A stretch of 64,000 bases of DNA from Marsupella aquatica (GCA_973895155.1 OZ316891.1:24489899-24553898), one strand, 5' to 3'. Positions 1-62,796 are shown, counted from the first letter of the stretch. Made by a program: numbers and translations. The notes: generated by a model from the letters alone, not told the origin.

Positions 1-656
1 ATTTTCATGTATGACAAACCTACAACATGAGTGGAGGTTTCTGTTAGACTCTCCTCCACTGTCCCACCTAGCTCAACAACTATGGACTTGTACAGTTTGC
101 ACTTAGTCTCCCCAATTCCCTCTTCTGCAAATACCACACTGAACCCCTTCATAATGGTATTTCTCTCCTTGCCATGCTCATTCAATATAGCATCTGCACG
201 CATAGGATGGTGTCCTATGTTGACAACAGGTCCATATTGGACAGAAGCAAAGTTGGGTTTCTCTGCCGCTGCTTCATAGGCTTCCTTTTCAGCCAAAGCC
301 TCTACAGTGGCCTCCTCACTCTCCCACAACTCATATTGCTCAGTAATCTGTACACACCTATGTTTAACAGAATCAGTCAGCCAAGAGACTTCAACCACTT
401 TTAGACCTTGGTTGGTAATGGCAGAATCAATGAAGGACCATGACCACTTGTTCATCACATTCAGCCATGTCCCCGCAACAACATGTGTAGTCTGTGGAGT
501 GATGTCCTTGACTTCAGTCCCATTGAACTCTGAGAATCATTTTTGTACAATTGGCCAACTCACTTGGGTGAACCCATAGTGGCTAGGAATCAAAATGGCT
601 TTGATTCCAGCCAACAGATGCGGGTGGTCAACCTTTGTACATTTCCTAGAGGCCAT
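1..656 (-). pseudogene. Tandem BRCT-domain ORF (runs off window start; one in-frame TGA)
   Basis: Manual minus-strand translation from ATG 656: LLAGIKTILIPSHYGFTQVSWPIVQK*FSEFNGTEVKDITPQTTHVVAG...LKVVEVSWLTDSVKHRCVQITEQYEL and IMKGFSVVFAEEGIGETKCKLYKSIVVELGGTVEESLTETSTHVVG. Both show the BRCT G..f / GG / THvv pattern, and the first also has the W..DS..Y tail. Stop at 537-539. Not in the ORF track. Confidence 0.8.
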
Positions 657-1252
657 GTACACACACCCCACCTAATCATTGCAGACCGGAAGATAATGCG
701 TTCACCTGATAATCGAAGGGCCCCTAAAATGCTGCATTTATAACTTGGTCCAGTCCAGTCGTTTGGTGAGTCTCTGCTCCGATTCCAAGCAGGGGAAATA
801 TTGGGACAAACGTACTAGACACCTGCAAGGATGCACCTCATAGTTTGAATATGTGCCTTCACAATATTGAAGGTGACAAGTGCAATTTTTTTGTGATGCC
901 ACATACAGATGTTGTAAATGGGCAGACATTCAATGAGAATACAAAATGTTGGTACACAAACAGAATTCTCGCAATTTAAATAGCCTTGTAACTTATATGC
1001 TCATAATCAGAAGTCCTGATTTAATTTAAGCAGTGTCATGTAAGTCGTGATCAAAATGATTGCAGAGTTAAAAAAGTTCCTACAAGGCTTAAGGAGAGTT
1101 TTTGAAGGCATGTACCCAGGAACAAGTAATGAACTTAGGGTACTTGTTGCCTAAGCATCCTCTCCTACAGAGGTCCTTCTTCTCAAAATTGGAATGTTTG
1201 CAATCTCCAAGGTATCCACATCAAGTGCACTATGCAAGTACATTATTCAGAT

Positions 1253-1933
1253 TCAAAGCCAAGAAATGTGATCTCTCATAGGAGTGTGCAAAGTAGGATC
1301 TATGGCATGGCGATGACAATAGAAGATCCATCGATCAACACCATGTGCAGAGTGATGATAGATGTGTCTGTCACAAGCATAGCCTTCTGCTTGACGATCC
1401 TTCAAACAATGAAAGTGCCACATGGTGGGACACCTAACACAGTGGACTATGTCCACCCAAAAATCTTCATCGTGCTGACCACATGCCTTGCACTTATGAA
1501 GTGGGCAAGCTGTGGCAAGATCGGGCAAACATGAAAAACAAAAGAACCTCACACAATATCTGTCAGGGCATTTCCTAACAAGTGGTGGAGCATCAACAGA
1601 GCCCTCATAAGACCCCAACTTCCCACACTGTGCACACTTAGCCTGCTTCTCCAAACAATCAGTGCACATCCAGCCTCCCTGGTGTGCTGACGGGAGGCCC
1701 ACCCCTGGACAGTTGTTTTCTGCAGCAAGGTCAGACTCGGGGTTGAGGTGGAAATGCCTCATGCAAGGGCCCTCACATATGGCTAAGCCCCCACCATCGT
1801 CACAAATGGCACAACAATGAGCTGCCTTCTGGAAAATCTGACGTGCGGAGAAGTTTCTACCATCAGGCCCAACTACACCTGTGTTGCTCACCTCTGTCCC
1901 CCGCTTCTTGGCTCGGATTTTAGGGCGTGCCAT
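1253..1933 (-). CDS. Stand-alone composite PHD-finger protein, EDM2-like
   Basis: 226-aa intact ORF with CAICDDGG..CEGPCMRHFH, CTDC..KCAQCGKLGS, CPLHKCKAC, CVRCPTMWHFHC and IFYCHRHAIDPTLHTPMRDHI. This is collinear with the PHD region of Arabidopsis EDM2 as recalled (CAICDNGG..CEG.C.RSFH..CPLHKC..CRRCP..YH..IYC..HEID..L.TP.RDH). Basic N-terminus (RPKIRAKKR). Confidence 0.85.
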   Translation of the reverse strand: MARPKIRAKKRGTEVSNTGVVGPDGRNFSARQIFQKAAHCCAICDDGGGLAICEGPCMRHFHLNPESDLAAENNCPGVGLPSAHQGGWMCTDCLEKQAKCAQCGKLGSYEGSVDAPPLVRKCPDRYCVRFFCFSCLPDLATACPLHKCKACGQHDEDFWVDIVHCVRCPTMWHFHCLKDRQAEGYACDRHIYHHSAHGVDRWIFYCHRHAIDPTLHTPMRDHISWL

Positions 1934-2569
1934 GCCTACCCATGAGACAGATAGTACAATTTAGCAGAGTGCACAGACAATACAATTTAGCAGTGTACAA
2001 AAAGTACAATGTAGCATATTACACACAGATGTATACATACTTTTTGGTTTGTTGAGCCCACTCTGAAAACTGATCCCCTAGTACAATAGCTCCACCTACA
2101 CCTCAATTTTGTGGCTATGATTCACCAAAGGAGATCTGCAACAAGATTTAATGCATTTGAATCACATACAATAGTTGTGACATGTAAAACAGGCATTTTT
2201 CGAACAGGATTGGTATCAAGCAGTGTGATCAGGGTTGTAGTTTATACATCCTAAATAGGCTATGATAGTGAATGAGACAAATAAGTTAGGCATAAATCAC
2301 TTTTTCCAGGTTATCACATGGCCCATTAATTCCAGTCTTTGAAAGGAGACTTTTAAGTGAGCTTGCTAGCCTCTTAAATTAGGATATTGTACTTAGTGCA
2401 GCCATAATAGGATAAATTATGTACTGTTGACCCTAAACCCTGGACTGAAAATTGCTCATAATTCAAAATTTTAAGTAAATATCCTCTCTGTTCAAGTCAG
2501 AGTGTTAAGTTATAGGTCAATGGTCTCTGGTCTGTGCATGCGGTGAGACAAGTGGTCCTCTAGAGCGTG

Positions 2570-5500
2570 TGTGGTGCGTCCCATGGCTCCCTAAACCCAA
2601 GAAACCCCCCCAACACAAGCCGATTCCCGCAGGTTTCGCGCTTGGCGGGGCCATTTCCGCGGCTTAGAGGCATGGGACGTTGCTAAACTCCTCTACATCT
2701 ATTAACAATTTACACACATATACTGGACAGATCCTTCATCGGGTCATGAGATATGAAGCCGGCCTACTCTAGGCCTTTCCTTGTCTTCCTCTCCTTCTGG
2801 TTAGGTATGTTTGGATTCCGTCGCCGGAATGATCCCCAATAGGCTTGGTTAAGCCGCTAAGACCTCTCTCAGCTCGACACATTCAACACTCACTCCCTTG
2901 CTTACTTTCCTTCCTTCTGGTTGATGTGGGCACTCTTCACACAAGTTAATGCGACACACAAATAGCAAAATGACTCCTTCTGACTGAATCATACCATACA
3001 CTTGCCATACAAATAGTACATCTCATACACAAGCTCTGCGAACTAAGCCGTGAGGCCAACTCTATTCAGCTCTTAGGCATGAGGAAACATGAATATACAC
3101 AAGGTCACAATATGACTAACCAAGAGCTTCTCTTACTACTTGATCCCAGCCCGGCTGGTGCAAACTAAAAACTTGCTAAAGAAGAGGCCCTGAGCTCCCC
3201 GCAGCCCAGGTACTTATCCTGGTAGCGGATCCGCCTAATTCTTTGCAGCGTAAGCCTAATCTACCTAATAGTAATCTACCTGCCCGAATCTACCTATGTA
3301 CAGCGAGGCAGGAGTACAAGTGCTGCTCTTACAAGTGGAACCGCAATCCCACTAAGCTAAGTGTCAGGGCCGCTTCCTGGTCCTGATCCTAATCCTAACT
3401 TAGAGATCCGAGCCCGCCCTGCCCACTCACGCCTCCTCCCTCCACGTCCGCCCTCCTTGAAAGGAGCGGCCCTCCACCACCGTCATGGCAGCGGTGTCTG
3501 TCCCTCAGTGGACGCCCCCATCGCTTCTTCCTCAGCCACTGCCGTTGGCCCGTCTACTGACAGATTACCTGCCCTTGACTGAGTCAACTCTCCATCGGCC
3601 TGACTGGGTCCACCTTCGGCTTCGGCCCTGACACCGGCCTCGGCATCACCTCCGGCTTCGGCATTCCCTTCCCCTAGGGTAGTTGGATCCTCTGCCTTGA
3701 TCTTGTCTGGAGTCGTTGCCGGGTCTACCTCCTTGGTCACCTCGGCCTTTGGAGTCGTATTACTCCTTGACCCTGAAGGTTTCCGCTTCTTCTTCGTTTC
3801 TGGCTCGGCAGCTGGTCCCTTCCCCTTCCCACTTACTTCCGGCACTGGTGCAGGTGGCGCGGCTTGTCCTTCGGCAATTACCACCCCTGGTAACTGGTTT
3901 GCCCCAACGGGAGATGGACCTGCTGCAGCTAAGCATTTAAATACTGCGGCTTGTTTCTTCAGTCGCTCTGTTTGGTTGTCGGCCCGCCGCTGTAGGTTCT
4001 CCATCTTCCTCGTGATTTCCTCCAACTCCTCTTGGGTCTCATCCAGGTCCTTACGTGCCCCCTCCAGCTTGTTTTTGGCCTCCTCCTGCTCCCTGTGGGC
4101 TTCCTCCAATTCCTTCTTCAAGGTAGCCCTCTCCTCCCGGGTTGCTCTTAGCTCCTTGTCGAGCTCTGCAATGATGACAGACTCCATCTGGTTCATCTTG
4201 GCATAAGTCTGGTCGAGCATCACGTCCTTCTCCCTTAGGTCGGCCTTGAAGCTGGCCGTTAGGGACGCAAGCTCCTGCTGCAGTGCCATAATCTCTTGAT
4301 AGGATTTCCCTAACTCGGCCTCCTTCTGTTCAAGGGCTCCGCGGCTTTTCTCGAGCTCCCCTTTCAACGCCCGTTCCTTTCTTTGGGTCTCTGCCATGGC
4401 CCGGTTGTTAGCTGTTATGTGGGCCTCCTCTGCATTCCTCAGCTCTCGCTTCCACTTCTCCCTCTCTTTGATCGCATCGGCCAACTCTCCTTGGGTCCGC
4501 GTCAGTAGATTCTCGATCATCCTGTTATCAGATTGTGCGGTATCCAACTGGCCCTGCATGATATTTAGCTCATGCCGCTTAATCCGCAGCTCATCTTGGG
4601 CTTTCTTGGCCGCCCTCAGGTCCTTGATTTCGGCTTCCCTTTCCCTAAGCCGACGGATGACCTCATCCTTCTTGCTTCTTTCCAAGGCCACCGCTTCTTC
4701 CAATTGGCGCTTCTCCAACTGCTCCCTATGGAAAAAGGGTCCTACCTCCAATTCCTCCCCAAAGATGCCGAGCGCAAGTTCCCCACACATCTCACCATAC
4801 TCCATGGCTCTATTCTTAGCGTAGGTGGAGTAAGTAGAAGTGATCGGCATCGTCCATCGCGGCCTCTGCTCCCAAGCCGTCTTGCGGGTCTCTTCAATCG
4901 TGGCTAGAGGTTTGCTTCCTTTTTTGGCTAGCCGCCTAATGTTCTCTGGCCATTCCCCTCCTGGAAAATCCTTCTCACTAGCCAGGGCTGCCTCCTCTTC
5001 CTCCCTGATTCGCTCCTGAAATTCTTGCACCGTCTGTTTTATGCCGTCAAAGCTTGGGGGAGCGACATCTGGCGGGGGAGACTCGGGGCTGCTCTGCTGG
5101 CTCGGGTCTCCTCGGACTACTCTTGGGAGCGTGGGGATGAAGCAACCACAGGTCCTTACTCCTGGAACATGATGATCCGACCCATAGCCGGAGTTATCAT
5201 TGCTGTAGTCCTCCATCGCCTCCTCCTCGGCTTGGACTACCAGCTTCTCCCGCTCGTCTCCTGGTTTTGGTGTGAACACGGCTTCACCTCCTGCCGGTCT
5301 TGGTTCCTCCTCCGGTCTCCGTGTTGATCTCCTGCTCTCCTTGCTGTGGTCGGGAGTTACGACCTGCTTCTCCTCCGCTTCGGGACTAGAGGCTCCTACA
5401 TACATCCGGACTCCCGGCTTGTGTTCCGGCCTCCGTCTCTCCTTGACTCCAGTAAAGGGGTTCTCCTTTGTAAGCCGGTTTAGGCCTACCTCTGGAACAA

Positions 5501-7257
5501 TATCGTTCATTGTTGCCGCTGCCGTTGTCGTTGTCGATGCCGATCTCTTTTCTTTCTCCAGCAGCTTCAGCAGACTCTGCATGCCTGGTTGCTGCATCGG
5601 CAAGTCCTCTGTTCTTGGTCTAAACACCTGGTCGATTGTAGGACTGTCGGGCGGTTTGGGTTTCTCCGTTGCCTGTCTCTGTTCCGGAACTGGTGCCCTT
5701 GCCGATAGGGGAAGTACCGGGGCAAAGGTCTGACCTCTGGCATACCGGCACAACAGCGGCATGTGATAGCCAAGCCGCGATACGCTCCCCATGCCGATTA
5801 CTTGCTACTCCTCCTTCAAGATTTTCTTCAATTGGTTGAGGAGGTACCCGTTGTAGTCCCGGCTTGGGTCTGGTCTCTCTGCCAGATAGACCTATGCCTT
5901 GCCGATCTCTGCCCTCGGCAAGTTACAATGCATGGTTACCCGCAAGAAGTCGATCATCTCTCCAATGTGCGGGTTGGTACAGGTGTTCCGGAAGAAGCCA
6001 TTCTTCGTTGATATATGGTCCGGGGAACGACCGGAACTCTTTGTCAGGCAAGGTCTTCCTGGTATCAACCTTGGTCTTATTGCCTATTGGCAAGCCAAAC
6101 ACTTCGGCAATCACCTTGGGAGTAAGATAGAAATCCTTCCCATATATCCTCGTGCAATTGGTCTCGGGTTCCCATGACCCCACGAATTCTAATAGGTCTG
6201 AATCCGGCACCTCCGGCTTTAGCCATGGTAATCTTACAAAGGCTTCCAAGCCGGATCCGGCCATGAAGCCTTGGTACTTCTTGGTCTGCATGGCCGTAAA
6301 GCATGCATCCTCCTCCCGTGCAAAATGTAGTTGCACCTCCATTGGTAGAGTTGCCGCCCAGCCCTTCCAGGTGTCATCCCTGGTTGGAATGGCGTTGATG
6401 GGGTCGCTTTCCTCCTCTTCGGCTTCGCTCTTCTTCCTGCTCTGCTGTTTGGCTGGTTTCTTTGGTGCCGCCGACCTTGTTCTTTTTGCCGGGGTGGCTT
6501 CATCGTTGACGGCTCCCTTCCTCTTCATCTCAGCTGCCGTGGAGGTTTCTCCTAGCACTGTTGCCTGGGTCCACCTTTCTGTGCTACCCTTTAATTCCCA
6601 GTGTATGTCGTTGCAGTTCTTGATGGCCTCTCGGATGCCGATGATGCTGTCTTTGCAAAACAGAAGATCGTCAAGCTGATTGGAAGTAGGAGTCCACAAG
6701 AACTCGGCCTTGATGAGTTTGCCTCCTAAGAAAGCCGTTTTCTGCAGCTCCCACAATCTAGCGAGCTCCTATCGTTCTCGAGCTGCTCTTTCTGATTCTT
6801 CGTCCTTGTAAGTCTTGATGTACTCAGTTGCCCGTTCGAACAGGCATCCCCAGAAATGTGCCGCTTGATTGACGTTGCTCATACCCTCCTGAGGTTGATC
6901 GTTGGTATCTACTCCCTCCCCGAGTGCTTGCCTAAGCAGCTGACAGTAGTTGGCCTCCCGTAGTCGTCTGCCTAGTTCTTGCTCGCAAATGAGCCACCGT
7001 CTCCTGCAAGCGCTCCTTACCCCTCTCCTCCTCCGGTCCTTCCTCCCGTTGATCCTTCCTAGCCGCCGACGCTTAGCACGCCCTAACCCTAATCGAGTTT
7101 TCACCCCCAGCGTTCTTACCTCCGGCCTCGGCCCGGGTTCCATAGTCGCCCCTAATTGTTTATATTTTTCTTGTTTGTCCCTATACTAAGGTGTTTCCAG
7201 GGTGCATTCCTGCTTTACCCCCTTAACTGGCCGAGTGATTCCTGGCTAGGCATCACA
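2570..7257 (-). mobile_element. Solo LTR (4,688 bp) of a Gypsy family, containing a long ORF
   Basis: Element strand begins TGTGATGCCTAGCC and ends GGGACGCACCACA. Perfect 5-bp TSD GCGTG at 2565-2569 and 7258-7262. The same start follows integrase+PPT at 61680 and a near-identical end precedes a PBS-like motif at 55932. Confidence 0.92.
3483..7143 (-). pseudogene. LTR-internal ORF (~1,218 aa reconstructed): plant-transposon/PMD-like domain plus long coiled coil
   Basis: ORFs 6769-7143, 5923-6756 and 3483-5792 join into one frame after removing a 4-nt TATA insertion (~6012-6015) and reading through TAG at 6769, 5892 and 5805. The motif GLEAFV..LLEFV..IYGKDFYLTPKVIAEVFGLP resembles Transposase_32/PMD-type domains. 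Heptad-rich E/K/R region in the C-terminal half. Confidence 0.75.
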
Positions 7258-7702
7258 GCGTGTGATCCAAACATGTGTAGACACCAAAGGCACCGGTGTT
7301 GGGGTCTGGGAGGGCAGGACAAGTGACATCGCCAGGCACACTACAGGATGGCGAGTGGTTCCAGATGATACATTGTGCTCTGTGCAAAAACCGACATCCA
7401 ATAGAACGGTCATCCAACTCTGGGCCAGATGCCCTACAGGCACGACAGTCATATTGGCAACTGTGCACACACCCTTGGCACCTAATTTGTGGTGGGTCAT
7501 GTACAAGAGACACAAATACCAAGGATGTCGGGAAGGGTACTGAAGCAGGTAGAGGCCGGCTGTAGTTGTTCCTGGAAAGAACAGGGTACTCAAAGTACCA
7601 TGCAGACTGGGCTGGAAGGATCCCTAGTCTGACATACTCAAGGTGCAACATCTCTGCCTTGCGTGCAAGCCGCACATGTTCAGCGTTGCGGGTCCTCACC
7701 AT
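7258..7702 (-). CDS. Small Cys/His-rich ORF of unknown function, solo LTR inserted at its 3' end
   Basis: ATG-initiated 149-aa ORF with CQGCVHSCQYDCRAC and further C/H residues. The solo LTR sits in its last codons. Confidence 0.35.
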
Positions 7703-10519
7703 AAGTGTTGCTTTTGTTGTGATGTCCTCTGTTCATGTCCTTTGATGAGCAAGGCGAGCAGGAGGTCCACTTGCCTTGCCCACAGCAACCAACCTGCACT
7801 TATCAGTTCCCACTCACTAAATTGGTTCCAACTACAGGTCACAGTATACACATAGCATGAAAAGTGCATAGTACATATTTGATGTTGAGTTCCTAAGACA
7901 AAGAGCATGTATATAAAACCATGTTCTCCATGGACATGTACATAAATCATATTTGGATCCTGTTTTTTCATCCAGAAAGATTGAAAGTCTCACCTTGCAG
8001 GTTGCAGCAAAGAGAAAACTCACTGGTTGTCGTGTTGTGCAAGTGAACCTCCACTGAGGTGGCAGAAAGCAGACAAAGCTTCAGGAAGATGGGAAAGAAA
8101 ACTCAGCGCCTCCTAAGAAGAACATTGATACACAGTGTCCATAACAAACTCATGAAGTGGCAGAAAGGATAGCGTCGCCACAAGCACAAAATCCCGATAG
8201 GTTTAAGCTGCAAAAAACTAACCCCTCCAAATGTTTCCAGCTTGCGACCCTCAGGTGGAATGTGTATGCAGTTACATACACATGAGGATCCCCAACAAAG
8301 CAGACAACAGTGTGATCCGAATTCCCAATTACTATGTTCTATCCATACCTATGTTCATCAAAAAATGTTATGAGTAGACATTGTGAAGCCAGCAAAACCA
8401 AGGAGCCAATTGAAGCCAAATACTAAATTCAAATTCTGAGTTAGTTTGTACCTTACAAAGGTGGACCCCTGCCCTGCCTCAGTGACTGAGCAACAGTGCT
8501 GGTTGAGCAATGGAACCATTCAAAATTGCCATCACCAACCCTGCACTTGACACAGGATTCACACCAGCAGCATTCATGTGGATGCTGCAAAAGGAGCTTC
8601 TCATAATTCTCCTCTAATGTAATGCTCAATATAAACAATTAGAACTCCCACAAGTTGTCAAGACAGATTCCACCGGAGCAAAAAGTCCAAATCAGGTGAA
8701 TGAAAACCTATCGAGAGAAAATAAGAACGTAACTAAGAAGGTAGGCACACGAGCAACCAAGAAAAAAAGCAAGTGGCGCCTCGAGGAGAATCCGGAATGG
8801 TAATGCCCTTGCCCAGAAGCTTGGGAAACAAATCCAAAAAGCGCAAAAATGAGCGGCTGACCACCGTCTTGACCAGGCCCGCCACAAGGTATGGCTAGAG
8901 GCTGTGGTCCCCCCCTCAGTAAAGAAAAGGATGTAGGTTGGAGCACGGGGCACAAGGCATGTTTGGATCCAGGAGGAGCAAAACAGTAATGTCAAGCAAG
9001 AAGTGTGGAGAGACCAATCAGTAAACAAAAATAGGGGAGAACAAACATACATCAGCAGCAGCAGGAAACGAGAAAGTTGATTTAGGAGGGATTGTAGGGA
9101 GAGAGCTTTTGGTGGGCTCGGCTGCGCATGAAATATCGGGAGATAGATGCGCAAGAGAGTGAGGAGGGTGGCAAGCAGAAGACGGGTTGGGACTGGACCC
9201 TTGGTGCCGGTGGGTAATATATGGGGTTTCAGCAGACTTGGGGCCAGTTTGAGGAGAATTAAGAAGCACGCACCCCACGTTCTTGGGTGGTGGTTGGGTG
9301 GGGTTTTGTTTGATTGAAGAAGAAATCACCATTCTCTTCTTGAAGAAAGAAAATCGCAGGAAACAGTGGACGGGAGAACAAGGCATGTAATAGAGAACAA
9401 CAAGGCATGTAATAGAGACAGTGCGCAGCTCAGCTCCGAGGTCCAACGTTACGATGCACAGGGGGTCCTTGGTTGCAAGTAGGAGAAGGACTGAATCACT
9501 GTGGCTGCTCTTCTCTACTATCGAAGCACCCGGCTAGCAGCTCCGCAAACACTGATCATAGCTACAATCTCTACTCCATTGATTGAAGAGTAGCTGCAGC
9601 ACAATAAGGAGCTCCCACAGCCTCCCTCTTCAAAGCTCGGTTGACCTAGCTCTACGATCGACGGAGCATGGGCGCCAGACAAAGCACAAACTATACCATG
9701 GCGCTGGAGAAAAACACAGAATAATTGAAGCCTAACAATACCCTTCTCAGCTCCTGATTGAATGAGGAAAAGCACATTACAAGACACATTGCAGGCAATA
9801 GGATTTTAACAATGAAATCTCGCTTGTGCTGACAGAATACCTGGTTACAGCCACGCGTTGCTCATCCTCCCACAGTTTGGTGGCACACTATCCAGATGGC
9901 ATGACGCATGCCTTAACTTATGACGATTTGCGCAGCTCAAATCAAGTAGGTTGTCCCCACAAAAAGACAGAGGACAACAAAGAAAAGCAATGTAGCCGTG
10001 ATGTCTTACCAGCCCTGACAACGGGAGCTTCAAAGGCGGTGCACTGTGGCTGAAATGGCAGCACGCTGCTCAAACACTAAAGCAACACAAAACTTGGACT
10101 CTCACCTTATGCTATCAAACAACTCCTGGCTTGTATTCAGCTGGCGTTGGCCCACTCTAAGCTCTTGCGCCGCTCCGACTGCCAGTCGTTCTGTAGACGG
10201 TCTGTATCCTCCCTGACCGCAGCTCCTCCCCGCCCCCAGCTCGTCACCCGCGTCTTCTCCCCAATTTGTGGTGAGCTCCTCCTCGACCGCAGCTCTTGCG
10301 ACTGCTTTGCCCAGCCTCTGATGGCCTTCACGTTGTTATCGATTGTCGCTCGCCACAAAGTCCACAATCCATAAACCAGGCAGATAGCGCACCCGTAGAA
10401 CAGATGCAACCCGCATGCAGCTTCACCAACTCAATGGCAGCTCGACAACTTAAGGGTGCAGCAAAAGGGCGTTGAATAGGTTGTCTCACCTCACCCTTCG
10501 AGAGCCGGTCATTGCAGCA

Positions 10520-13060: not shown

Positions 13061-16000
13061 TGTGGAGTAACTAACATAACTTACCTATTTCTTACTTACC
13101 AGTGTTACAATAGTGACATTGGATAAAGTTGTAAGCATGACGTCCCACAACCTCACCAAAACTTAGTTGGTATGATGTAACTAACATGACACCCACAAAC
13201 TTGGAGTCGCATATTTATGAAGGTCTCGCACAAGTCACATAGGGGAGGGTCTCAAAATGGGTGGTTTTCTTCTAGTGACTCTCAATCCTCACTTTTCTCT
13301 CAGAGTTTGGTTTGGCAGTCTCCAATCAAGACAATGCGATCGTATTAGCTTCACAGTATCACTCTATCTGACTCAAATGGATCAAGCAACAAGTATCACA
13401 ACACACAATGCCATGATTGGCAAGAATCTGCGAACTAGGCAACAAGGCCAACTCAATTCAAACAAATTGCACAGTAATCCATGGGAACTTGTGTTTTACA
13501 AATAATCTGCGGTCTAGATTTAGCCGAGAGCTTCATGTGCTAGTAATACAGATTTTACACTAGAGTCTTGACTAAGAAAAAGCCCCTTGAGCCACGCTGC
13601 CCAGGTTTTTATCCTTGCAGCGCATCCACGAGAATCAGCAGGAATCTAAACCACCAATCACGGCCTTCCACCATGATAATCCTACTAATTAACTAAAACA
13701 AAAACAACTTGGCTAAACCGGAACCTTGAGGGATCCAAACACCTAATACTACCTAAGCCGACAAGGCGCTACTTGCCCTGTCCCTATTCTACAACGGCCG
13801 CGCCCTTCTGGCCCAAGCCCTTCTCCTTCCGCCATGTCCTCCCTCTAACCGACAACTGGCCCTCCTTAATTGTTAGATGACCAGGGGTAAACCCGAATCT
13901 TCCGACGCTGCACCTTCTCTTGTAACCGGCTTTGGCTTGCTCCCCTCGGCTTCCTTGACTTTGGGTTCTGGTTTAGCGGCATTGGCATCCGTAGCATCCT
14001 CTTGGGAAACAGCTTGGATAGCATTGCCCTTCACTTCCTCAATCCAAGCTTGCTCTCCAATGGGCTCGGTCTCGATCTTCCAGGGCTTCACATTCCGGTA
14101 GTCCATGGTAGTTGTACCTGTGTCTGAACCTGTTACCGCACCTCCAAGTTGATCGACATTACTTATCTCAACCACGGCTGCCTTTGTAGCAACAGTCCCA
14201 CAAATGTGAGCGGCCATACTTTTGACCTCTTTTGGAGTGGCCTTGAGAGGTACTCCATAAGTACCTGCTGGCCCCATGAATGTTTTGGCCAGATCCACAA
14301 CCAACTGCATTGCCTTACCCCCACTTACCTTTGACAACATCAATGTCGGCTTTGGCATCTCAGTATTCCCGGCTACCATGCCACTAGTGGGAGACCGTCC
14401 AGTCGGTGATCCTCATCCTGCTTTGGCATACTTCCTCAACTTCTCTGTTTGATTATCTGCACGCCTTTGCAACCCAATCATCTTATCTTTGGCCTCCTCC
14501 AATTCCTGGAATAAGTCCTCAACTTCCTTGTTAAACCGTTGTGCCTCATCCTTAGCTGTCTTTAGCTCTTCATTTAAGATTTGCACAATCTCAAACTCCT
14601 TATCCAAAGCGGCTTTCTATGAATTGTTGATGGCTTCCAGCTTTGTGACCTCATCCGCCCATGCTTGCTTTGTCTTGGCTATCTCCTCCTGAAGCTCCTT
14701 GCGTATCTACTGGGCTTGGTTTAGGAGATCATTGGCCGATGTACAAGTGGCCTCCTCATGATGCTTCTCTCGCATGGCCTCTAGCCGATTGAGTAGCTTG
14801 TCGTGCTTCCTCTGGGCTTCTGCCAAGGCCTTCTCGCTCTAAGTGAGCTGCTCCTTAGCCTTTGATCTGAGCCTCTCAACTTGCCAATTTAGACCCTGTA
14901 CCTCCTCCTTTGAATCGGCTAACTCTAGTTGTACCTTCGTCAATTTCTCCTTGATCTGCTGGTTGTCCAATTGGTTGTTTGCCACCTCCAATTCTTGCTG
15001 CTTAGCCAAGAGATCCTGCTGGGCCTGTTGATCAACCTTTGTCTTAGCAACTTTGGCTTCCATGCAGCAAAGCCGAGCAATTACCTCTTCTTTCTTTAAT
15101 CGCTCCAAAGTCATTGCCTCCTCCAGCCATGTTTGGTCAGCCATATCCTTTCTAAGAAATGGTCCGGATTCTAACTTATTGTCAAAGATTTCTAAGGCTA
15201 GCAGTCCACACATGTCTCCATACTCCCTAGCCCAATCCCTCGCATAATTTGACCTGCTAGGTGATACTGGCATCTGCCAACAAGGCCGTTTCTCCTAAGC
15301 TTATGCCCGTAATTGATCAAAGTCAGTGAGAGGCTCGGCCTGCTTCTCACTAAGCCATTTCATTTTCTCCGGCCAATCTCCACCTGGTAGCTGTCGTTCT
15401 CGCATGTAATTCCGGGATTTCCACTTGTTGAGTTTCTCCTTCAGTCTTGCCTTGGCCTCCTTCATTCGGTCAAACTCCAATGGTGTCACATCTGGTGGAG
15501 GAGACTCTGGGGTTTTCTGGTCCTCCGGCCTGCCATAAAAGACTGAGGGAAGTCTTCTACAAAACCTTCCCAATGTTCTAACACCTAGCACCGGCCTCTC
15601 CCCATGATTGACATAATTGTCGTCGTAGTCATCCACATTAACCTGACTATCGAGCATGCTGGCCTCTTCTGCAAAGCCCCCAATCTCCTCCTTTGAGTAT
15701 TGCTAGGCTGCCACTAGTTGATTTACCGCCACGGGTTCCTCCACTTGGGCCCGGCTAGAAACTCTAAGGACTGGCATCTCTTGGCTTCGGCCTTGGCTTC
15801 CTTCTTCAGACTCTGAATCCATCTGCTCATCCCATTTTTTTCTTTCTTTGGTAGTCATCTTCCTCTCTACTAGGTGAATTCCTGCATATGGATATTACGA
15901 GTAGGCCATCGTAACGGATTTCTCACCACATCAAATATTACTACCTCTGGCTCCTTGAGAGGGGTCCAATTCTCCTGTTTTTGTGATGCCGGCCTCTTCT

Positions 16001-17550
16001 CTTGCCGTCGTTTGTTCAGGGGCTCCTTGTCCTCTACTATCGGGGTTGTGATCGGCATCCGCTCCTATAGAGCAACACTGGTGCAAAAGACTGGCTTCTT
16101 GCATATCGGCAAAGTAATTGCAGATGGTACCCTCAGAGTCTGGATACCGCTCCTTCCCCAATGCTCTGCTTCTCTTCATTCAATGCCTTCTTTAACTGCA
16201 TTAAGAGATAGCCATTGTAGTCACGACTTGAATCGATATTCTCCACCAAAAATACCTGGACCTTGCCAATCTCTGCTCTCGGAAATATACAGTGTAGTGT
16301 GACTCTTAAGAAATCAATCAACTGCCCCACATGTGGAATAGTGCATTGATTTCTAAATAACCCGTTCTTAGTGGAGGGCCCTGGAAATGATCAAAATTGG
16401 TTATCCGACAATGTCTTCTGCTGCTCCACCCCAGTCTTATTCCCTTGTGGAAGAGCAAAGATGGCTTTGATCAGTGCTGGTATTAATTCCACCACCCTCC
16501 CATACATCAGCGTCGTGCTAGAAGAAGCCTCCCAGCATCCCACAAAGTCTAATAGATCTTTGTCTGGTATATTGACTAACTGCCATGGCAATCGGATGAA
16601 TCCCTCTAAGCCGGTGTTGTTCATGACATATCCAAAATACTTGTTATCTTGGATGGCACAAAAGACCTCATCTTCTTCTAGTGCAAACTGCAGTTGTAAA
16701 TTGGTAGGTAACCTGTCCGCCCAACCTGCCATAAACTTATCCTCTACTGCCCTATCCCAAATTGGCACGGCTTCCTTGGCCTGCCTTTCAGACTGGTTCT
16801 GCTAGCTGGTGTTGCAGACACCGAACTACCCTTTCACTTCATCTCTTCTATCCCTGAAGACTCTCCAAGAATGGCTTCCTTGGTCCAAGCCAAAGTGTGA
16901 CCCTTCAACTCCCACACTGGTTGCCTAGCGTTCTTGATCGCCTCCCGAATTCCAACGACGCGATTCTCCTGATCAGCAACTCGTCAAGCTCGGTACTAGT
17001 GGGAATCCATAAGAATATTTCTCTAGCACCTCCTCAGTTCCCACAAAAGCCGTCTTATGAATTCCCCATAACCACGCAAGCTCCGCCCATTCCCTTGTTG
17101 CGCGTTCTGGCTTGACGTCTTTGTAAGTTGGTATGAGCTGCCGTGCTTCTTCAAGCAAATAGCCCCAAAACTTGGTTGCTTGATTCAGCATGGTCATTCC
17201 ACCAAACAAATCAGGAGCTCGAGCAATTCCTTACCAACCTCCTTCGATCGACTGGCAGTTGCTTCCTCCTCCCAAGGTCCCGATCGAACAAGAAAATGAG
17301 CGAGTATATGGAGTGTCGGTCCCCTCCCCACAAAGCCACCTCCTAATGGCTTGCATGATCAGGCTTGGATTAGGTCATAACCCTAATCCCACCTGATCTT
17401 GACCGTTGGATCCTTCCCGATCACAATCCTCCCCTTAACATGTTGTAATTGGCTTCGGTCTTTATTTCTACCTTATACTATCTACCTAATCTTTATTTAG
17501 CCATTATTTTAGGCTTAACTAGTACTCTGTGATCCTGGCAAGGCATCACA
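13061..17550 (-). mobile_element. Diverged subfamily copy of the ORF-bearing giant LTR (left boundary approximate)
   Basis: Starts TGTGATGCCTTGCCAGGATCAC at 17550. Fragments 16973-17209, 16391-16768, 16133-16330, 15301-15657, 14839-15273, 14413-14607 and 13873-14379 are collinear homologues of the 7143-3483 ORF (e.g. EYGDMCGLLALEIF, PESPPPDV, LQRRADNQTE). No TSD found. Confidence 0.75.
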
Positions 17551-18172: not shown

Positions 18173-19500
18173 TGTGATGCCTAGCCAGGAATGACTAGGC
18201 CGTGTAAGAGGTAAAACCGGGGGTATACAATAAAACCACTAGTATAAGGGGGAGAAAAGCAAGAAAACCATAAAAAACTAAGGGTACACATGAAACCCGA
18301 GCCGAGGCTGGGAGTAAGAGGAGTAACAACCACTAAGGGTTGTGATTAGGGTTTGGCATGTTAATGTTGGCGGCTGCCGGTAATCAATAACCAAGACAAG
18401 CAGTGCAGGCCGGAAGGGGGGTAAGATAGGGTCACCCAGGAGTGACGGCTCACATTCTCAATCAAGCAGAGTGCAAGCAGAAGCCAACAACTATCAACTA
18501 CAAAGGAGAACACAGGGGCATAAGCAGCTACCGAGCAATGGCAGAGGAGAGAATGAGCAACATCAATCAAGCGGCACATTTATGGGGATGCCTATTTGAA
18601 CGGGCAAGTAAGTATGTTGGGACCTACAAGGAGGAAGAATAAAAAAGAGTAGCCCGCAAGCAACAAGAGCTTGCTCGGCTACGGGAACTGCAGAAGTTGG
18701 CCTTCTTAGGAGGAGAGTTCATCAAGGTTGAATTCCGGTGGACGCCTACTGCCAATGAATCGACGATCTTCTAATTCAAGACAACAAAATTGTCGGCATC
18801 CAGCAAGCCATCAACAACTACAATGACAAACATTGGGACCTGAAGGGTTGCATGGAGGCGTGGACGATAGAAACAATGTTGGGAGAATCATCAAGAGCGG
18901 CAAAAATGAAGAGGAAGATGGCCAACAATGAAGAAAACACACCAGCCAAGAGGACAAGGTCGGCAACATCAAGAAGGCCGGCCGAACAAGGGAGGCTAAG
19001 AGAGGAGGGAGCCGAGGAACCAGAAGTCGACCCAGTCAATGCCGTCCCTATCCGAGATGACACCTAGAAGGGCTGGGCGACAATAATACCATCGGCAATG
19101 CAGCTACATTTTGCACGAGAGGAGGATGCATGCTTTACAGCCATGCAGACCAAAAAGTACCAGGGCTTCATGGGCGGATTAGGCTTGGAGACCTTTGTTA
19201 TATTGTTGTGGCTAAAGCCGAAGGTGCCGAAGTCAAACTTACTGGAATTCGTGGGATCATGGGACCATGAGTCTAGCTCAACCAAGATCTATGGGAGGGA
19301 TTTCTATCTCACCTCCAACGTGATTGCCAAAGTATTTGGCTTGCCGATGGGCAACAAGGCTAAGGTAGAAACCCGGAAGAACTTGTCGGATAAGGAGTTT
19401 AGTTCATTCTCCTGGCCATCAACAAAGAATGGCTTCCTCCGAAACACCTGCATCAACCCGCATATTGGAGAGATGATCAATTTCCTGCGGGTGACAATGC
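18173..19500 (+). mobile_element. 5' part of the ORF-bearing LTR, truncated
   Basis: Starts TGTGATGCCTAGCCAGGAA. Encodes NQAAHLWGCLFERA and HFAREEDACFTAMQTKKYQGF. Cut at 19500 by a new LTR start. Confidence 0.85.
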
Positions 19501-19634
19501 TGTGATGCCTAGCCAGGAATCACTAGGCCGTGTAAGAGGTAAAACCAGGTGGTATACAATAAACCACTAGTATAAGGGGGAGAAAAACAAGGAAACCGTA
19601 AACAACTAAGAGAAAAACAAGGAAACCCTAAACT
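19501..19634 (+). mobile_element. Short 5' stub of the same LTR
   Basis: TGTGATGCCTAGCCAGGAATCACTAGGCCG..., near-identical to 18173-18280, then abuts the gag fragment. Confidence 0.8.
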
Positions 19635-25111: not shown

Positions 25112-26071
25112 GTGCCCCGTAGGCCCCCTCCTCCATTGATCTCTAAAGAGCTATGGCTAGACACATTCTTGGCTAGTGCAAGGCGGATGCTTGCATCAAC
25201 ATCTACACCCCCTTCTCCTGCCCCGCGCCCCAATGGTGAGGGCGGGAGTGTACCTGTAGCAAGGGTGGAGGACATTGAGCAAGGTGACCTGGAGGTACCT
25301 CCATCTAGGGTTTTACGCACCCGCCCACGCTCCCATAGGCATAGGAGACATTACAAACCATTGGGCACTCGTGAGTCTCAAGACCCAAACTTGGTAGGTC
25401 CGCCTATGATGATGCCAGGTGAGGGTTATGTGGTAGTGGAGGGTAGGTTGGGATTGTCATATCTCACTGGAAAGGCGTTGCCTCTTGTGAAGGACTTCTC
25501 GTCTGAGATATTCAAAATCCCTCAAGGCATACCCACTAATGCCCCTATAGAGATATGGGGCCGTCATTGGATAGTGCAGTCATCTTCCCTTGGTGTTGAT
25601 GTAGGATTTGGGTTATTTGCTTTGGAGGACATTGTGGTCCATCCAAAGCCATGGTGAAGAGGTTATGATGGGGAACACTTATTTCCTTACATTGGCCCTA
25701 TATACACTGCCAAGAATTGGAACATTATTTTGCGGCAACAACCATCATGGGGAGTGTATGCATTGCAAATGGATTCCGATCCGAATGAGATCCTCAAGAG
25801 GCCTTGGCATTGTAGGATGATTGATGGTGATCCTGTGCGATGTGATAACATCGTTGGGTATATCAATAGTACCAAAGGGAGAGGACGAGGACTTCAACCA
25901 AATGTAGAGTGGGTTCAGATTTTTGGGGCACCGCCACCACCTTACTATGTCAAGCATATGGATGACCATGTTATGACTATAGCCATTAGGACTATTAGGG
26001 CTGGTGAGGAACTCTTTTGTGACTATGATTGGAACGCGCCTAAGATGGCCATACGGTGTTGTCCTTCATAG
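25112..26071 (+). pseudogene. SET-domain (lysine methyltransferase-like) terminal exon
   Basis: Acceptor TAG|GTG. ORFs 25112-25657 and 25730-26071 are in one frame across a single TGA (25655-25657). Motifs SSLGVDVGFGLFALEDI, FPYIG, IDG..DNIVGYINS..PN and AIRTIRAGEELFCDYDW correspond to SET motifs I-IV. Confidence 0.88.
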
Positions 26072-26258
26072 CACATACAAACATGTGTATATGTTCACTT
26101 TTATAAAAATATTACTTGAGTCATTCTCTAATTGGTTTCAAGAGCTATGGAGTCTTTTGACTCATTCATATATGGATGTCTCAATTGTTGGTTGAGAGAC
26201 CTGGACTTATATCATTCTCATTGTTTTCTTTTGTGTATGATAGAATGCATTTGTTCAG

Positions 26259-29062
26259 CCAGATATTGAGGTATTATCACGAGCTGTGCGACAACATCTC
26301 CTTCAGGCCATGGATGGTAGGCAAGGGGGTCAACCTTTTGAGGATATGGACATTCCACATGAACTACCTAATGCTACCCAAGAAAGAGTGGATGAGGACC
26401 GGGCTATGGATGAGTTGATGCACCAATTCATGGATGCAGATGAGGGTGATCCCCGGGGTGATCATGACCCAGGTGACTAGGAGGACATTGACTTACCTCC
26501 TCCTCATAGGCATACTCCTTCACGGAATCCACACTCGCACCAGTGGGAGGAGGCTCAAGAGCATGCACGAACTCGTCTTTTTGAGGGGTCTAGATTATCT
26601 CGTCTTTCAGCAATCATGTTATTACTGAACTTGCAGCAAAGACATGGAGCAAGCAACTTGCTTCTTGATGATATTTTCAGGACATTGCATGATCGTATGT
26701 TACCAGAGGGGAACAACTTGCCAGCATCATGGAAAGAGGCGAAGAAAGTGTTGAAGTCCATAGGCCTCAAGTATGAGGTCATACATGTTTGTGTGAATGA
26801 TTGTGTTTTGTTTAGGAAGGAGCACTCAAATGCTCTTACATGTCCTGTGTGCAACGCGCCAAGATATCATGAGGATATGTTGACAGGAAGAGTACCTCAA
26901 AAGGTTATGAGGTACTTTCCCCTTATTCCTTGTTTGCGTCACCAGTTTCGATGCGCAGAGTTGGCTAAGTATATGGTATGGCATTCCCAACACAGTTCAG
27001 ACACTACTCAGGATCCAACCATGCGCATGATGGTTGACTCTCCTGCAAACAGATTTGTGGAAGAGTGTTGGGGTGAGTTCAAGACTGACCCTCGTCATGT
27101 TCACCTTGGTTTGGCATCAGACGGCATTAGCCCATTTGCACTGGCCGGCAAGGCCAAACCATACTCTGTATGGCCAGTAGTCCTCACTAACTACAACATC
27201 CCACCATGGATGGCCATGAAGAAGGGTCATTTGCTCCTATCTATGATTATTCTTGGCCCTAAGCAAGTGAAGAAGATTGATGTATACTTGCAACCGTTGA
27301 TTGAGGAGCTACAGAAACTTTGGGGGGGTGGATTGCTATGATGGTTGAGTGCATACAGGGGGCTTACCCCGTGAGTTTCAGCTCAAAGCCATTCTTATAT
27401 GGACCATGCATGATCTTCCAGGTACCCAACTCTTTATAAATTAAGTATGGCTTGTGCAGCTACCCATATATATATATCGTTCTGTTTATTTTGTTCCCTT
27501 TGGTTTGGTTTCAAAACTTAATGGGTTTTAATTTGTGACCATTGTTTGTGAAGGGTTTGGATATATTTCTGGCTTGCAAACTTCTGGATATCGTGCTTGC
27601 CCGACTTGTGGACCAGACTTGGAGGGAGTGGCCCGCCCAAAGTCTACCACCCTGCGGAAGATAGTTTACATTGGTCACACAAAGTATCTTCTTGAGGGGC
27701 ATGACTGGAGGTATGATCCATTTTTGTATGACACGGATGAGGGCCAGCCAGACACAAGACCTCAGCCTTTACCAAAGGACCCAATATATTGGAAGGAGGT
27801 ATGGGAGAGGGTGACTGATCCAAATGACCCGTTTGTCTGCATTGGCACAACTTCCATATTGGGAACACATGCCGATAAATCATCTATTGGACCCTATGCA
27901 TATTGAGGGGAATGTTGGGAGGTCATTGATCCGCCATCTATATGGAGAGAAAAACAACAATTGGAGGGAGAGTTGTGAGGAGATGGGGATGCATGGCCTT
28001 CATGGTTTTTGGCCATCTATGGACCCTGACCCTCCCCTTACTATCCATCCCCCATGGGTTTTCACAAGGAGTGAGCGAATAGAGTTTTGCAAGCGGATAG
28101 GGTCAATGCGGTTTCCTACAGGGTATGGTGCCAATCTTCGCAAGACATTTGGTGGAGATGACTCTCCAAAATGGCCAGCTTTCTTGAAGGCCCACGATTA
28201 TCATCGTCTATTGCAACACGTTATTCCAGTTGCTATTATTGGATTGGGCAGCGAGGATCTTCGGGATGCACTTTGGTCATTGGGTAGATTGTTGAGATGG
28301 GTTTGTCAAAAGGAGGTCAACGAGGGAGAGATTGCTGCCATGGAGGTATTTGGAGTGGAGGTTGTGTGCAAGTTGGAGCGAGCACTCCCTCCTTCCTTCT
28401 TTGATGGTCAAGTTCATTTTCTTGTACATCTAGTGCGTGAAGTAGCCATTGCAGGCCCAGTACATTGTCGTTGGATGTATTGGGTAGAGCGATTCATGGG
28501 AGTCATGAAATCATATGTATCAAACCGTGCTAGGGTGGAAGGTAGCATTGCCGAACGTCACCTTGGAGCAGAGAGTATGTTCTATTGTACAAACATTGTG
28601 GCTACACTTGATCCAAATGCTCCAAGGGGTTGGATAGATGAGTCAGCACGAGAGGCAGATTATGAGGAGGATAGACTCACTGGAGCAAAGGGAGAACGAT
28701 TACTAGGCTCTGCTGAACATCTGCAACTCACCACATTCATGTTGTATAACTCACCAGAGATTGCAGGGGAGTGGACTGCATTTTATGAGGAGGAGAAGAG
28801 TAATAGTCGTCGGCCACGCCTCTTCCCCAAGTTTCTCCCATATATGAAGGAGAAGTTGACAGAGATTGATGCCTTGTTGGGTCAGGGTGAGAGTGTTTTG
28901 CACTTTTCGAAGGTCACCAATGACATGCGCACCCTTGTTCATGGTCCATTACTCACGGTCACGACTCGAACAACCATGTGGTCAAAGGGGAGGCATTTTT
29001 GAATCCAACATCTTGATATGAAGAGAGCAGCAACACAAGATTGTGGGGTGATGGGGTGGTTC
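26259..29062 (+). pseudogene. TnpD: CACTA transposase TnpD (Transposase_21 + DUF4218 region), interrupted
   Basis: LPEGNNLP..IHVCVNDCVLF..CPVC, LGLASDG, YSVWPVVLTNYNIPPW, WTMHDLPG, LDPMHIEGNV, HFLVHL..GPVHCRWMYWVERFM. Intron ~27422-27553, frameshifts near 27325 and 27830, stops at 26478 and 29000. Confidence 0.92.
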
Positions 29063-30327
29063 GAGGTGTTTACAAAAGACAGCAAACAGGAAACAGGATT
29101 TAATAACAGAAACTAGTAACAGGAAAAAAAACTGGTAACAGGAAAATGGGTCCACCGGAAAAAAATTGGTCCACCGGCCCAAAGCTAGCCAAAAATCTTG
29201 CATTGTTAATTTTTTTTGGAAATAACATGTTTTAGGAGACATTTTTAAATTATTATTTTTCCTGGTAACAGTGATTTTTTCCTGGTAATAGGGGCCTGAC
29301 CTCCGTGACAGGAAACAGTAAACAGGAAAAATCATAACAGGAGTTTTTGCGCTCACGTTGTCATAATGGGATAAGTTTACTAGCGTCGGGCGCTAGCCAA
29401 AATACAATGGTACGTTTTCATATTAGTTGCAAGGGTTACAATTAGCAAATTACATCACATGTTAGGCAAACAAAATGTGCATGGTTTATTGGAAAATATG
29501 TAATTTATATTTTTTCAATGGATACTTAACATTTTGGCAAGGGTTATCATTAACACCCCCTCCCGACGCTAGCCAAAATACCATCATAGTTTTTACATAG
29601 TGACAAGATTTACAATTAATATACTGTTGTAATAGACAACTAAAGGAAAACACTCAAAGATACTCCAACAAGATAGATCCATTACTATTGATGAGGGGAT
29701 ATATATATCCCCTTGGTTACATGGTAGGCAAATGCCCTTATACTGGTCCTATGGTTAGGAGTTCTCATACTATGGTTAAGGGTTCTCGCCCTATGGTTAA
29801 GGGGTAAACTAGGGTTTACAACACTCCCCCTTGGTTAGTTTATGGAGGAGCATAAAGTAACCACATCTCTTGAACCTAGGGTATAATCCGGTTTAGGGGT
29901 CCACCTGTGTGATGTAGCCTCATTAAAACCTCGCCGCTTTCTTCTCGAGGAAAGAGTGCTACCATCACTTATATAGGTGGTTTCCCATATCTAATGTCCT
30001 GGTTAAGCCTTTTTGCCATGTCTTAGTTAGTGTTGATCGTATGTGCTAAGTGGGGTTATGTGAATGTTCCTAATGGGTGTCTAGTCTCCCCCTCAGCTCG
30101 TTGCCTGGTGTGCGTCTCGTGTTGTTCTTCATGTCGTTTTGCGTATTGCGCTTCGCTTCGTGTTGTGCTTTGGGTTAGTGAGGCCAAGTCGGGCGTTTTT
30201 GCGTTGGTTTGCGTTGTTTCACGTCGGGGATGTGGTGTGGCGCTCGCCGAGTGTGGTGGTCGGGCATCTGGAGGCGGCTTCATCGGGCGACAGTTTCGTC
30301 GTTGGGTAATCCTTTCGAGCTTCAGTG

Positions 30328-60729: not shown

Positions 60730-61691
60730 GACATCCGCTGCACCCTATTCTACCTCTGGCACCATTTGAGAAGTGGGGTATTGATTACATTGGACCCCTG
60801 AAACCATTGACCCATCCTTGAAGGAACAAGTACATAATCCTGGCCACGGATTATGCAACTAAGTGGGTGGAGGCCAGGCCGACAACAAAGGATGATGCAA
60901 TTACTACGGCTTGATTCATGTATGAGCAGATCTTCACCAGGCATGGCACACCCCTAGAATTAGTTAGCGATAGAGGAACCCATTTTCTGAATGATATAAT
61001 CAGTCGTTTAAATGAGCAGTATTTAGTTAGATATACGCCTACTACTCCTTACCACCCAAAGGCAAATGGGTTGAGAGAACGTGCCAATGGAATTATAGGA
61101 AAAATATTAAACAAGACTGTAGCCCAAAACAAACTCGATTGGGATGATAAATTGTTTGCTGCTGTTTTTGCTTACAATTTAGCCTATAAATCCACTATCG
61201 GTCATACACCTTTTTTCTTAACCTTTGGACAGGAATCTCTGGTACCTATGCAACTTGAGATTCCTACATTTCAAGTTACAATTGAGGAGAGAGCCTTAGA
61301 GGAGGGACGCCTAAAGGAGCAAGAATATAGATTAGTGGCCTTAGAAGAGGCAAGGATGATTTCAGCCGAGAGAGTAGAATATAGACAGAATACCATGAAG
61401 CAACAGTATGATAAAAAGTTGAAACCAGTTAGTATTCACATAGGAGATCTTGTATTACTTTATGACAGTAGGTATAGTAGGTTTCCAAGTAAACTTTACA
61501 CTCGCTGGTTAGGACCCTTCAGGGTAACCATGAAGTTCCCCAATGGCTCCGTACAATTGGCCAACATTACTGGAGAGGTGTACTACCCAGTTTGCATTCA
61601 CTACGACCGTCTTAAGAAATACTATATGGACGAAGATGAAGTTGTTCGCGAGGACGCTTCACAATTAAGTGGGGAGCTATGTGATGCCTAG
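60730..61691 (+). pseudogene. pol: Gypsy (non-chromovirus, Athila/Tat-like) integrase
   Basis: PFEKWGIDYIGP, TDYATKWVEA, VSDRGTHF, TPYHPKANG.RERAN, WLGPFRV..RLKKY. Two upstream stops, no chromodomain, followed by PPT AAGTGGGGAG. Confidence 0.92.
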
Positions 61692-62796
61692 CCAGGAATC
61701 ACTAGGCCAGTTTAAATGGTAAAAATCAAGAGTGTACCCTAGAAACACATTAGTATAGTAACGAAAACAAGGAAAATATAAACAAGTAAGGGTAACTATG
61801 GAACCCAAGCCGAGGCCGAAAGTAAGGACATCGGGGGAGGGAACATGATTAGGGTTAGGGCACGCTAAGTACCGACAGCTATGGGTAACTAACGGGAAGG
61901 AAGACCAGACAAGAGGGGGGTAAGGACCAATTGCAAGGAATGGTGGCTCATTTGCAAGCACGAACTAAGCAGATGACTACGTGAAGCCAACTACTGTCAG
62001 CTGCTTAGGCAAGCACTCGGGGTGGGAGCAGATACCGACTATCAACTCAAGAAGGGTATGAGCAATGTCAATCAAGCTGCTCATTTTTGGGGATGCCTAT
62101 TTGAACGGGCAACTGAGTACATTGGGACCTACAAAGACGAAGAATCGGAGAGAGCAGCTCGAGAATAGCAGGAGCTCGCTCAATTGTGAGAGCTGCAGAA
62201 GTCTACCTTCTTAGGAGGAGAACTCATCAAGGTTGAATTCCTGTGGACACCTACTGGCAACGAGCTAGACCACCTTCTATTTTACAAGAACAGAATTGTT
62301 GGCATCCGGGAAGCCATCAACCACTGCAACAACATACACTGGGAGTTGAAGGGTCGCACAGAGGGGTGGACGAAGGCAACCATGCTGGGAGAAACATCCA
62401 CGACAGCCGCTATGAAGAGGAAAGGAGCCAACAACGAAGAGGCCACCCCTACAAAGAGAATGAGGTTGGCGGCACCAAGGAAGCCAACCGAGCAAGGAAG
62501 CAGGAGGCAGGCAGAAGCCAAAGAGGAGGAGGTCGATCCCATCAATGCCGTTCCAACAAGAGATGACACGTGGAAAGGTTGGGCGACGACCCTTCTTGAG
62601 GAAGTGCAACTACACTTTGCATGTGAAGAGGATGCATGCTTTACGGCTATGCAGACTCGAAAGTACCAGGGCTTCATGGCCGGATCCCGCTTGGAAGCCT
62701 TCATGAAATTAACATGGCTGAAGCCGAAGGTGCCGGATTCAGACTTACTAGAATTTGTGGGATCATGGGAGCCCGAGAGCAATTCCACAAGGGTGT
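61680..62796 (+). mobile_element. 3' LTR (giant ORF-bearing type), interrupted
   Basis: TGTGATGCCTAGCCAGGAATCAC immediately after the PPT. ATG 61798 and peptide blocks match the 7143 ORF. Confidence 0.92.

Follow-up and report, generated by a model that had tools for sequence, protein, structure and literature searches.

Here, we describe a unit of 4,688 bp at positions 2570-7257 of a window of Marsupella aquatica DNA (OZ316891.1:24489899-24553898; the window is the whole stretch of 64,000 nucleotides that was analysed). The unit reads as the solo long terminal repeat (LTR) of a Ty3/gypsy element, and most of its length is occupied by a single, decayed open reading frame (ORF). Further copies of the same LTR family, a diverged paralogue and part of an integrase are found elsewhere in the window. 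The features are collected in Table 1.

Table 1. Coordinates of the LTR unit, its parts and the related sequences in the window
Feature	Position	Strand	Remarks
Target-site duplication GCGTG, left copy	2565..2569		
Unit read as solo LTR, 4,688 bp	2570..7257	sense = minus strand	
Target-site duplication GCGTG, right copy	7258..7262		
Non-coding 3' part of the LTR (913 bases), likely end of U3 and R-U5	2570..3482	-	70-90% identity per 50 bases to the copy before the primer-binding site
Decayed sense ORF, ~1,218 codons	3483..7143	-	broken at 6771, 5894 and 5807; frameshift near 6011-6019
About 265 charged residues, putative long coiled coil	3930..4724	-	read from sequence; heptad signal modest
Predicted VANC21-like domain	5711..6390	-	split by the frameshift in the unit; identity of the halves to the modelled paralogue 50% and 73%
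Conserved N-terminal region and, behind it, a basic K/R-rich linker, putatively nuclear-signal-like	6390..7047	-	
114-base leader, candidate promoter of the ORF	7144..7257	-	TATA-like word at about 7188-7180
Diverged paralogous LTR	13427..17550	-	same kind of start; whole ORF to ~13873; weak 3' non-coding similarity
5' 1.3 kb of another copy	18173..19500	+	single frame across the unit's frameshift site; interrupted at 19501, where another LTR of the family starts
3' kilobase of a related LTR; contains the final ~35 ORF codons	54932..55932	+	primer-binding-site-like motif at 55939; upstream part cut by another element
Ty3/gypsy-type integrase, C-terminal part, with purine run before 61680	60915..61691	+	frame ends 12 bases within the LTR
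5' 1.1 kb of a related 3' LTR	61680..62792	+	ORF start 61798; cut at 62793 by another element

Ends and junctions of the unit

The terminal letters of the unit are TGTGGTGC at 2570 and GCATCACA at 7257, i.e., TG..CA ends in which seven of eight bases are inverted. GCGTG occurs exactly on either side, and the chance of an exact 5-mer is about 1 in 1,000. The termini and the perfect target-site duplication (TSD) reported in a preliminary description of this DNA are both exact. On the minus strand, the unit opens with 23 bases that are found again without mismatch at 61680 and 19501; the occurrence at 18173 has one mismatch and that at 17550 has six. At 61680, this start is preceded by a short purine run and an integrase frame, whose best match in the PDB is Ty3 Gag-Pol (E 3.6e-13) and whose stop lies within the repeat. 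This is in agreement with the earlier claim that the LTR starts right after integrase and polypurine tract (PPT). At the opposite end, the last 1,017 bases are 78.5% identical to 54932-55932, and the motif TGGCGCTAGA, which resembles a primer-binding site (PBS), follows 55932 after a spacer of 6 bases. The proposed position of the LTR end before a PBS-like motif is thus confirmed, but to call this end near-identical was an overstatement.

Neither an internal direct repeat nor, by Pfam and repeat comparison, gag-pol was found in the unit. A start behind a PPT, an end in front of a PBS, the TSD and the lack of an inner repeat lead to the reading as a solo LTR. That the unit is an LTR, as had been claimed, we consider highly probable, given that both types of junction are present and the diverged paralogue has the same layout. 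Two other arrangements were rejected. An element with short LTRs and an internal ORF is ruled out by the absence of an internal repeat, and a one-off gene insertion by the layout being common to four other copies and the paralogue.

The integrase stands last and adjoins the PPT, as is typical of Ty3/gypsy elements. Both the 5-bp TSD and the lack of a chromodomain after the integrase are features of the OTA (Athila/Tat) group, and the element that owned the solo LTR is probably Athila/Tat-like. No reverse transcriptase or RNase H of the LTR family was found in the 64-kb window. We take the motif TGGCGCTAGA to resemble a tRNA-Asn primer site. For OTA elements, PBS complementary to tRNA-Asp, -Asn, -Arg or -Lys are reported, with Asn at 12% in Athila, 15% in TatII and 4% in Retand (PMC6317226). 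A text search of the literature for the PBS-like motif gave no relevant paper.

The open reading frame and its decay

The ORF covers 3,661 of the 4,688 bases, and the measured share of 78.1% fits the 78% that had been given. It starts with ATG at 7143 and has its final stop at 3485. All breaks of the proposed single frame, three TAG stops and one frameshift (Table 1), could be located, and the arithmetic indeed gives 1,218 codons. After the frame change, 773 open codons extend down to 3483. The sequence context of the ATG is found again at 61798 and 18290, where it had been expected at 61798 and about 18289.

The three stops and the frameshift seem to be peculiar to this copy. Where the unit has its frameshift, the copies at 16070-17200 and 18759-19500 stay in one frame. 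The positions matching stops 5894 and 5807 are open in the paralogue, as is the position matching stop 6771 in the copy at 18173. Read data point in the same direction for one of the stops: in each of the four runs compared with the unit, which come from four organisms and were taken from eight listed, 96-100% of the read depth carries another letter at stop 5894. The 40 substitutions considered, out of 829, do not include stops 6771 and 5807. The copy of the gene at 2570-7257 is dead.

In all five LTR starts, including that of the far paralogue, a TATA-like word is located 66-75 bases from the LTR start and about 42 bases before the ATG. Judged from sequence, this conservation suggests that the ORF has a promoter of its own. 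The word also bears a likeness to the VANC21 target motif (quoted from PMC5735166), which we treat as chance.

Selection on the coding sequence

Pairwise dN/dS values (ratios of nonsynonymous to synonymous substitution rates) were obtained by the Nei-Gojobori method from codon pairs taken from protein alignments, which gives them a slight lean towards identity. They amount to 0.208 (294 codons), 0.201 (216 codons) and 0.196 (172 codons), so that the suggested check for dN/dS<1 turned out at about 0.2 in three comparisons. Against the paralogue, dS is saturated, and the pN/pS intervals are 0.32-0.53, 0.11-0.25 and 0.48-0.63, the last one for the pre-coil and coiled region. Mismatches in the coding comparison, 48/29/84 by codon position, show a plain third-position excess, whereas a non-coding control over 888 bases is flat (49/46/50). 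It is almost certain that the LTR once held a single functional gene. A chance frame was considered as well, and is ruled out by 773 stop-free codons together with a dN/dS of 0.2.

Homologues and predicted fold

Out of 1.84 billion proteins, a profile of five ORF pieces from the window retrieved 28 with an E value of 0.001 or below. Ten of these matches were looked up: four are proteins of Calypogeia fissa, one is annotated as 'hypothetical' and five are nameless. A word-index protein search in one length range yielded four matches, all from the liverwort Calypogeia fissa (23-24% identity) and one of them already among the profile matches, while the searches in two other length ranges yielded none. 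Taken by themselves, these matches make a liverwort or another non-seed plant the probable host. Pfam gave nothing informative for any ORF piece or homologue, the PDB had no match to the ORF protein by sequence, and metagenome scans for ORF relatives returned no loci. An Atlas search with the pre-coil region gave chance-level rows only; a weak lead in the Atlas, with a score of 0.87 and thus below 0.9, points to a cluster with 14% ATHILA (PF03078) members.

For the N-terminal region, the predicted model is unusable (pLDDT 44). The situation is different for the conserved 227-residue domain of the paralogue, for which AlphaFold2 (33 rows) gave a model with pLDDT 84 and pTM 0.82. The top match of this model in Foldseek is VANC21 bound to its target DNA (TM 0.50, E 0.51), and the next one has a TM of 0.15. 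In VIA-align, VANC21 is the top match as well, with Z 9.0. In a VIA-align search against 48,161 chains, VANC21 came out with Z 9.1 (root-mean-square deviation, rmsd, 4.1; 211 aligned residues; 8% identity) and the next chain with 2.2. The alignment joins 211 of the 227 domain residues to residues 288-543 of the VANC21 chain. For the predicted model, the match therefore spans nearly the whole domain and lies far above the rest, while being moderate in absolute terms, and it speaks for a fold, not for a function. Going by this model, the ORF probably carries a DNA-binding fold. A viral fold search with the domain model gave no match at E 0.001 or better.

A link to PMD or Transposase_32 had been suggested beforehand. 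This finds no support in Pfam, but the VANC21 fold match points to the same structural family, because VANC has been linked to PMD. VANC is described as structurally similar to MAIN/PMD and as possibly derived from captured MAIN-like host genes (PMC13547354). It is reported to bind short motifs and to demethylate its own family (PMC5735166), and VANC and an Athila domain are predicted to oligomerise via coiled coils (PMC13547354; bioRxiv 2024.09.27.615353).

A short word, AGGTAGA(TT), occurs three times in the 3' non-coding part of the unit (3258-3295, minus strand), twice in the copy ending at 55932 (55213-55238) and, in the paralogue, twice around the TATA-like word (17466-17487). It is a candidate binding motif only.

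Interpretation and competing explanations

The explanation we lean towards is that, in what is likely its U3, the solo LTR contains a gene of about 1,218 codons that was once under selection, and that the predicted VANC21-like DNA-binding domain of this gene likely had the task of protecting the activity of its own family from host silencing. Plus-strand priming at the purine tract by the integrase end would put all downstream sequence into U3. Relatives have an accessory gene between pol and the 3' LTR, and a gene in that place would thereby be copied into both LTRs, so that it is likely carried twice per element, and it would remain after LTR-LTR recombination. A promoter in the first 114 bases could make an ORF mRNA, which would be ended by the 3' signals of the LTR itself, and a solo LTR could then serve as a self-contained cassette. 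The solo LTR would retain the gene as DNA, and its expression would depend on that promoter. The protein may oligomerise via its coiled coil, enter the nucleus, bind short motifs in family members and counter DNA methylation or Polycomb marks in trans; by analogy with VANC, it would likely protect its own family. For an anti-silencing or transactivating role as such, which we derive from this analogy, the chances appear even. A wider scenario is rather tentative: a retrotransposon lineage outside the seed plants may have moved a VANC-like anti-silencing gene together with its promoter into the LTR, such that each solo LTR would be a free-standing, trans-acting counter-defence gene, and the VANC/PMD fold may have been present in retrotransposons long before flowering plants.

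Several observations weigh against this explanation. No element with two complete LTRs lies within the window, and the copy at the PPT (61680) and the one at the PBS (55932) do not overlap and may be separate insertions. Read depth lacks a step down at the right boundary, where the flank is itself a high-copy repeat. The gap at 6011 is seen in 8% and 17% of the depth in the two deepest runs, but in 30% and 100% in the other two; loose read ends near 6011 suggest that gaps were left unaligned. As to the fold, the Foldseek E value of 0.51 is not significant, identity is 8-11% at an rmsd of 4.1, a VIA-align Z score below about 13 may be no more than what helical proteins give in general, and a common fold does not demonstrate a function. 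Moreover, the modelled domain is that of the paralogue and not the split domain of the unit, and Pfam gives no match to DUF1985, DUF287, PMD (PF10536), ATHILA (PF03078) or Transposase_32. Unlike VANC targets, the unit has no tandem array, and one 9-mer alone occurs three times in it (2.2% of 500 shuffles).

Three alternatives have to be considered. Expression of the gene in U3 might be confined to full-length elements and their 3' LTR, by way of a spliced RNA or of a promoter that lies upstream of the PPT; the 5' and solo copies would then be silent, and solo formation would remove the function. Retroviral U3 genes are mostly expressed in this manner, and it would suit the decay of the solo copy and the leader of merely 114 bases. 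The constant place of the TATA-like word in all five starts, even in the far paralogue, argues against it, as does the integrase coding sequence, which reaches the LTR and leaves no non-coding room upstream; we regard this alternative as unlikely. It is very improbable, in turn, that the unit has the ends of an LTR but does not occur twice per element, being a recombinant or non-autonomous derivative that the integrase of the family mobilises, and that the true LTRs are shorter. Such a view could draw on the absence of a complete element in the window and on the 37-base terminal match at 56443-56479, whose unrelated upstream sequence demonstrates that the end can sit on another body. However, the unit contains no repeat that would qualify as a pair of short LTRs, the ORF starts 115 bases past the PPT junction and ends within the copy before the PBS, and the paralogue shows the same layout.

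The third alternative keeps the LTR and the DNA-binding fold but takes the protein for an integration-targeting or chromatin-tethering factor, which would steer copies into repeat-rich DNA, its own family included, without lifting silencing. Family copies are nested in repeats, one of them directly in another copy at 19501, and there are contigs in which the LTR end adjoins interior parts of the unit; yet nesting is expected in any repeat-dense region, and these joints rest on 20-40 bases. The integrase has no chromodomain match in Pfam, and the extra ORFs of Retand and ATLANTYS are reported to bear SMC- or ASY2-like coiled coils (PMC11963269; PMC13547354). The sole solved relative is an anti-silencing factor, and we find a pure targeting role quite unlikely.

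An anti-silencing gene within the LTR would matter in several respects. Solo-LTR formation is a main plant route of retrotransposon deletion, and solo LTRs are treated as non-coding. If the LTR is a gene cassette, deletion would spread the accessory gene rather than remove it, and the family would be misread both by gene annotators and by LTR finders whose length limits are short. From the fold match comes a testable role for a class of extra ORFs whose function is called unknown in review literature (PMC7264820). The match would also widen the range of the VANC/PMD fold to include a family with liverwort proteins as its named relatives, which bears on the proposed capture of VANC from MAIN-like host genes (PMC13547354).

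Other copies, read coverage and neighbouring elements

All other family copies in the window are interrupted by nested insertions. At 19501-19610, the start of a same-family LTR is inserted within another copy, possibly a case of self-targeting. The second LTR end at 56443-56479 shares the last 37 bases only; no PBS comes after it, and sequence weakly similar to the 3' part of the LTR follows. The region after the PBS is broken by an imperfect palindrome of 220 bases (56164-56384), which is similar to a miniature inverted-repeat transposable element. The 3' LTR is cut by the start of a different TG-initiated element at 62793-64000 (plus strand), which has a gag-like frame and, near 63166, a TATA box. 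The far end and the TSD of the paralogous LTR were looked for in the window and were not found.

In all four runs, coverage of the unit extends over 30 of 30 bins; the two deepest ones have 13,420 and 24,858 contigs. Read depth is not a measure of copy number here. The flanks at 2570 vary in two runs. Both flanks (2000-2569 and 7258-7900) are high-copy in the runs compared, and frames with BRCT and NSD-like PHD-finger domains (3-1960, minus strand) adjoin the insertion site. High-copy flanks and adjoining frames together indicate that the LTR likely lies within another repeat, which may carry chromatin-reader genes.

Farther away, a SET-domain frame (E 3.7e-07) stands directly upstream of CACTA transposase frames (Transposase_21, DUF4218) at 25658-29002 on the plus strand, an arrangement that suggests a DNA transposon with a histone-methyltransferase-like cargo. 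At 29625-35468 (minus strand) lies a near-intact Copia element; its LTRs have about 200 bases, and its gag and pol are in overlapping different frames. A tandem array of a 116-base repeat occupies 36508-38237, with at least 12 copies that are about 90% alike. Three long frames at 42133-44757 (plus strand) have no Pfam match; the last two presumably carry motifs of the kind found in DDE-type DNA transposases.

Comparison with known systems

In titles and abstract openings, no protein gene in a plant LTR was found described, most subscription papers being outside this search. What appears to be new, as far as the model can be trusted, is the structural link between the 227-residue domain of an LTR ORF and transposon anti-silencing proteins. 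The closest system by fold is VANC21 of the Arabidopsis VANDAL21 transposon (PDB 9LNJ/9LNK; DUF1985/PMD-like fold). It is likewise a transposon accessory protein, the predicted fold aligns with it, and both proteins have variable regions and a coiled coil. In contrast to the ORF described here, which lies in an LTR, the gene for VANC belongs to a Mutator-like DNA transposon, and VANC is said to be dicot-specific (PMC13547354). The identity of 8-11%, the lack of a DUF1985 or DUF287 match and the absence of tandem motif arrays from the unit are further differences. Without a profile match and in the wrong host element, the ORF protein is not a VANC member.

Athila, Ogre and Retand (ATHILA PF03078, PMD PF10536, Transposase_28 PF04195) have the Ty3/gypsy order with the integrase last and a 5-bp TSD in common with the family studied here, and also LTRs of up to about 5 kb and an accessory ORF with a coiled coil (PMC6317226). 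Their extra ORFs are reported as internal, either before gag or between pol and the 3' LTR (PMC7264820; PMC11963269; PMC6317226), whereas ours starts 115 bases within the LTR, has about 1,200 codons and gives no Pfam match to their profiles. Rice Retrosat2/RIRE3 resembles our case in its LTRs of over 3 kb, its many solo LTRs and an extra ORF under purifying selection, but this ORF0 is described as lying upstream of gag-pol (PMC3485330). It would thus be lost in solo LTRs, and it belongs to another lineage.

With respect to position, the nearest case is sag, the superantigen ORF in the 3' LTR of mouse mammary tumour virus (MMTV), a vertebrate retrovirus with unrelated sequence and role. Its frame is much shorter, and its product is an immune-modulating membrane protein. 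The likeness consists in a whole protein-coding frame being contained in the LTR (PMC2118998). By analogy, the gene in the LTR would work like an accessory gene of Athila or Ogre with a VANC/PMD-type domain, placed like sag of MMTV.

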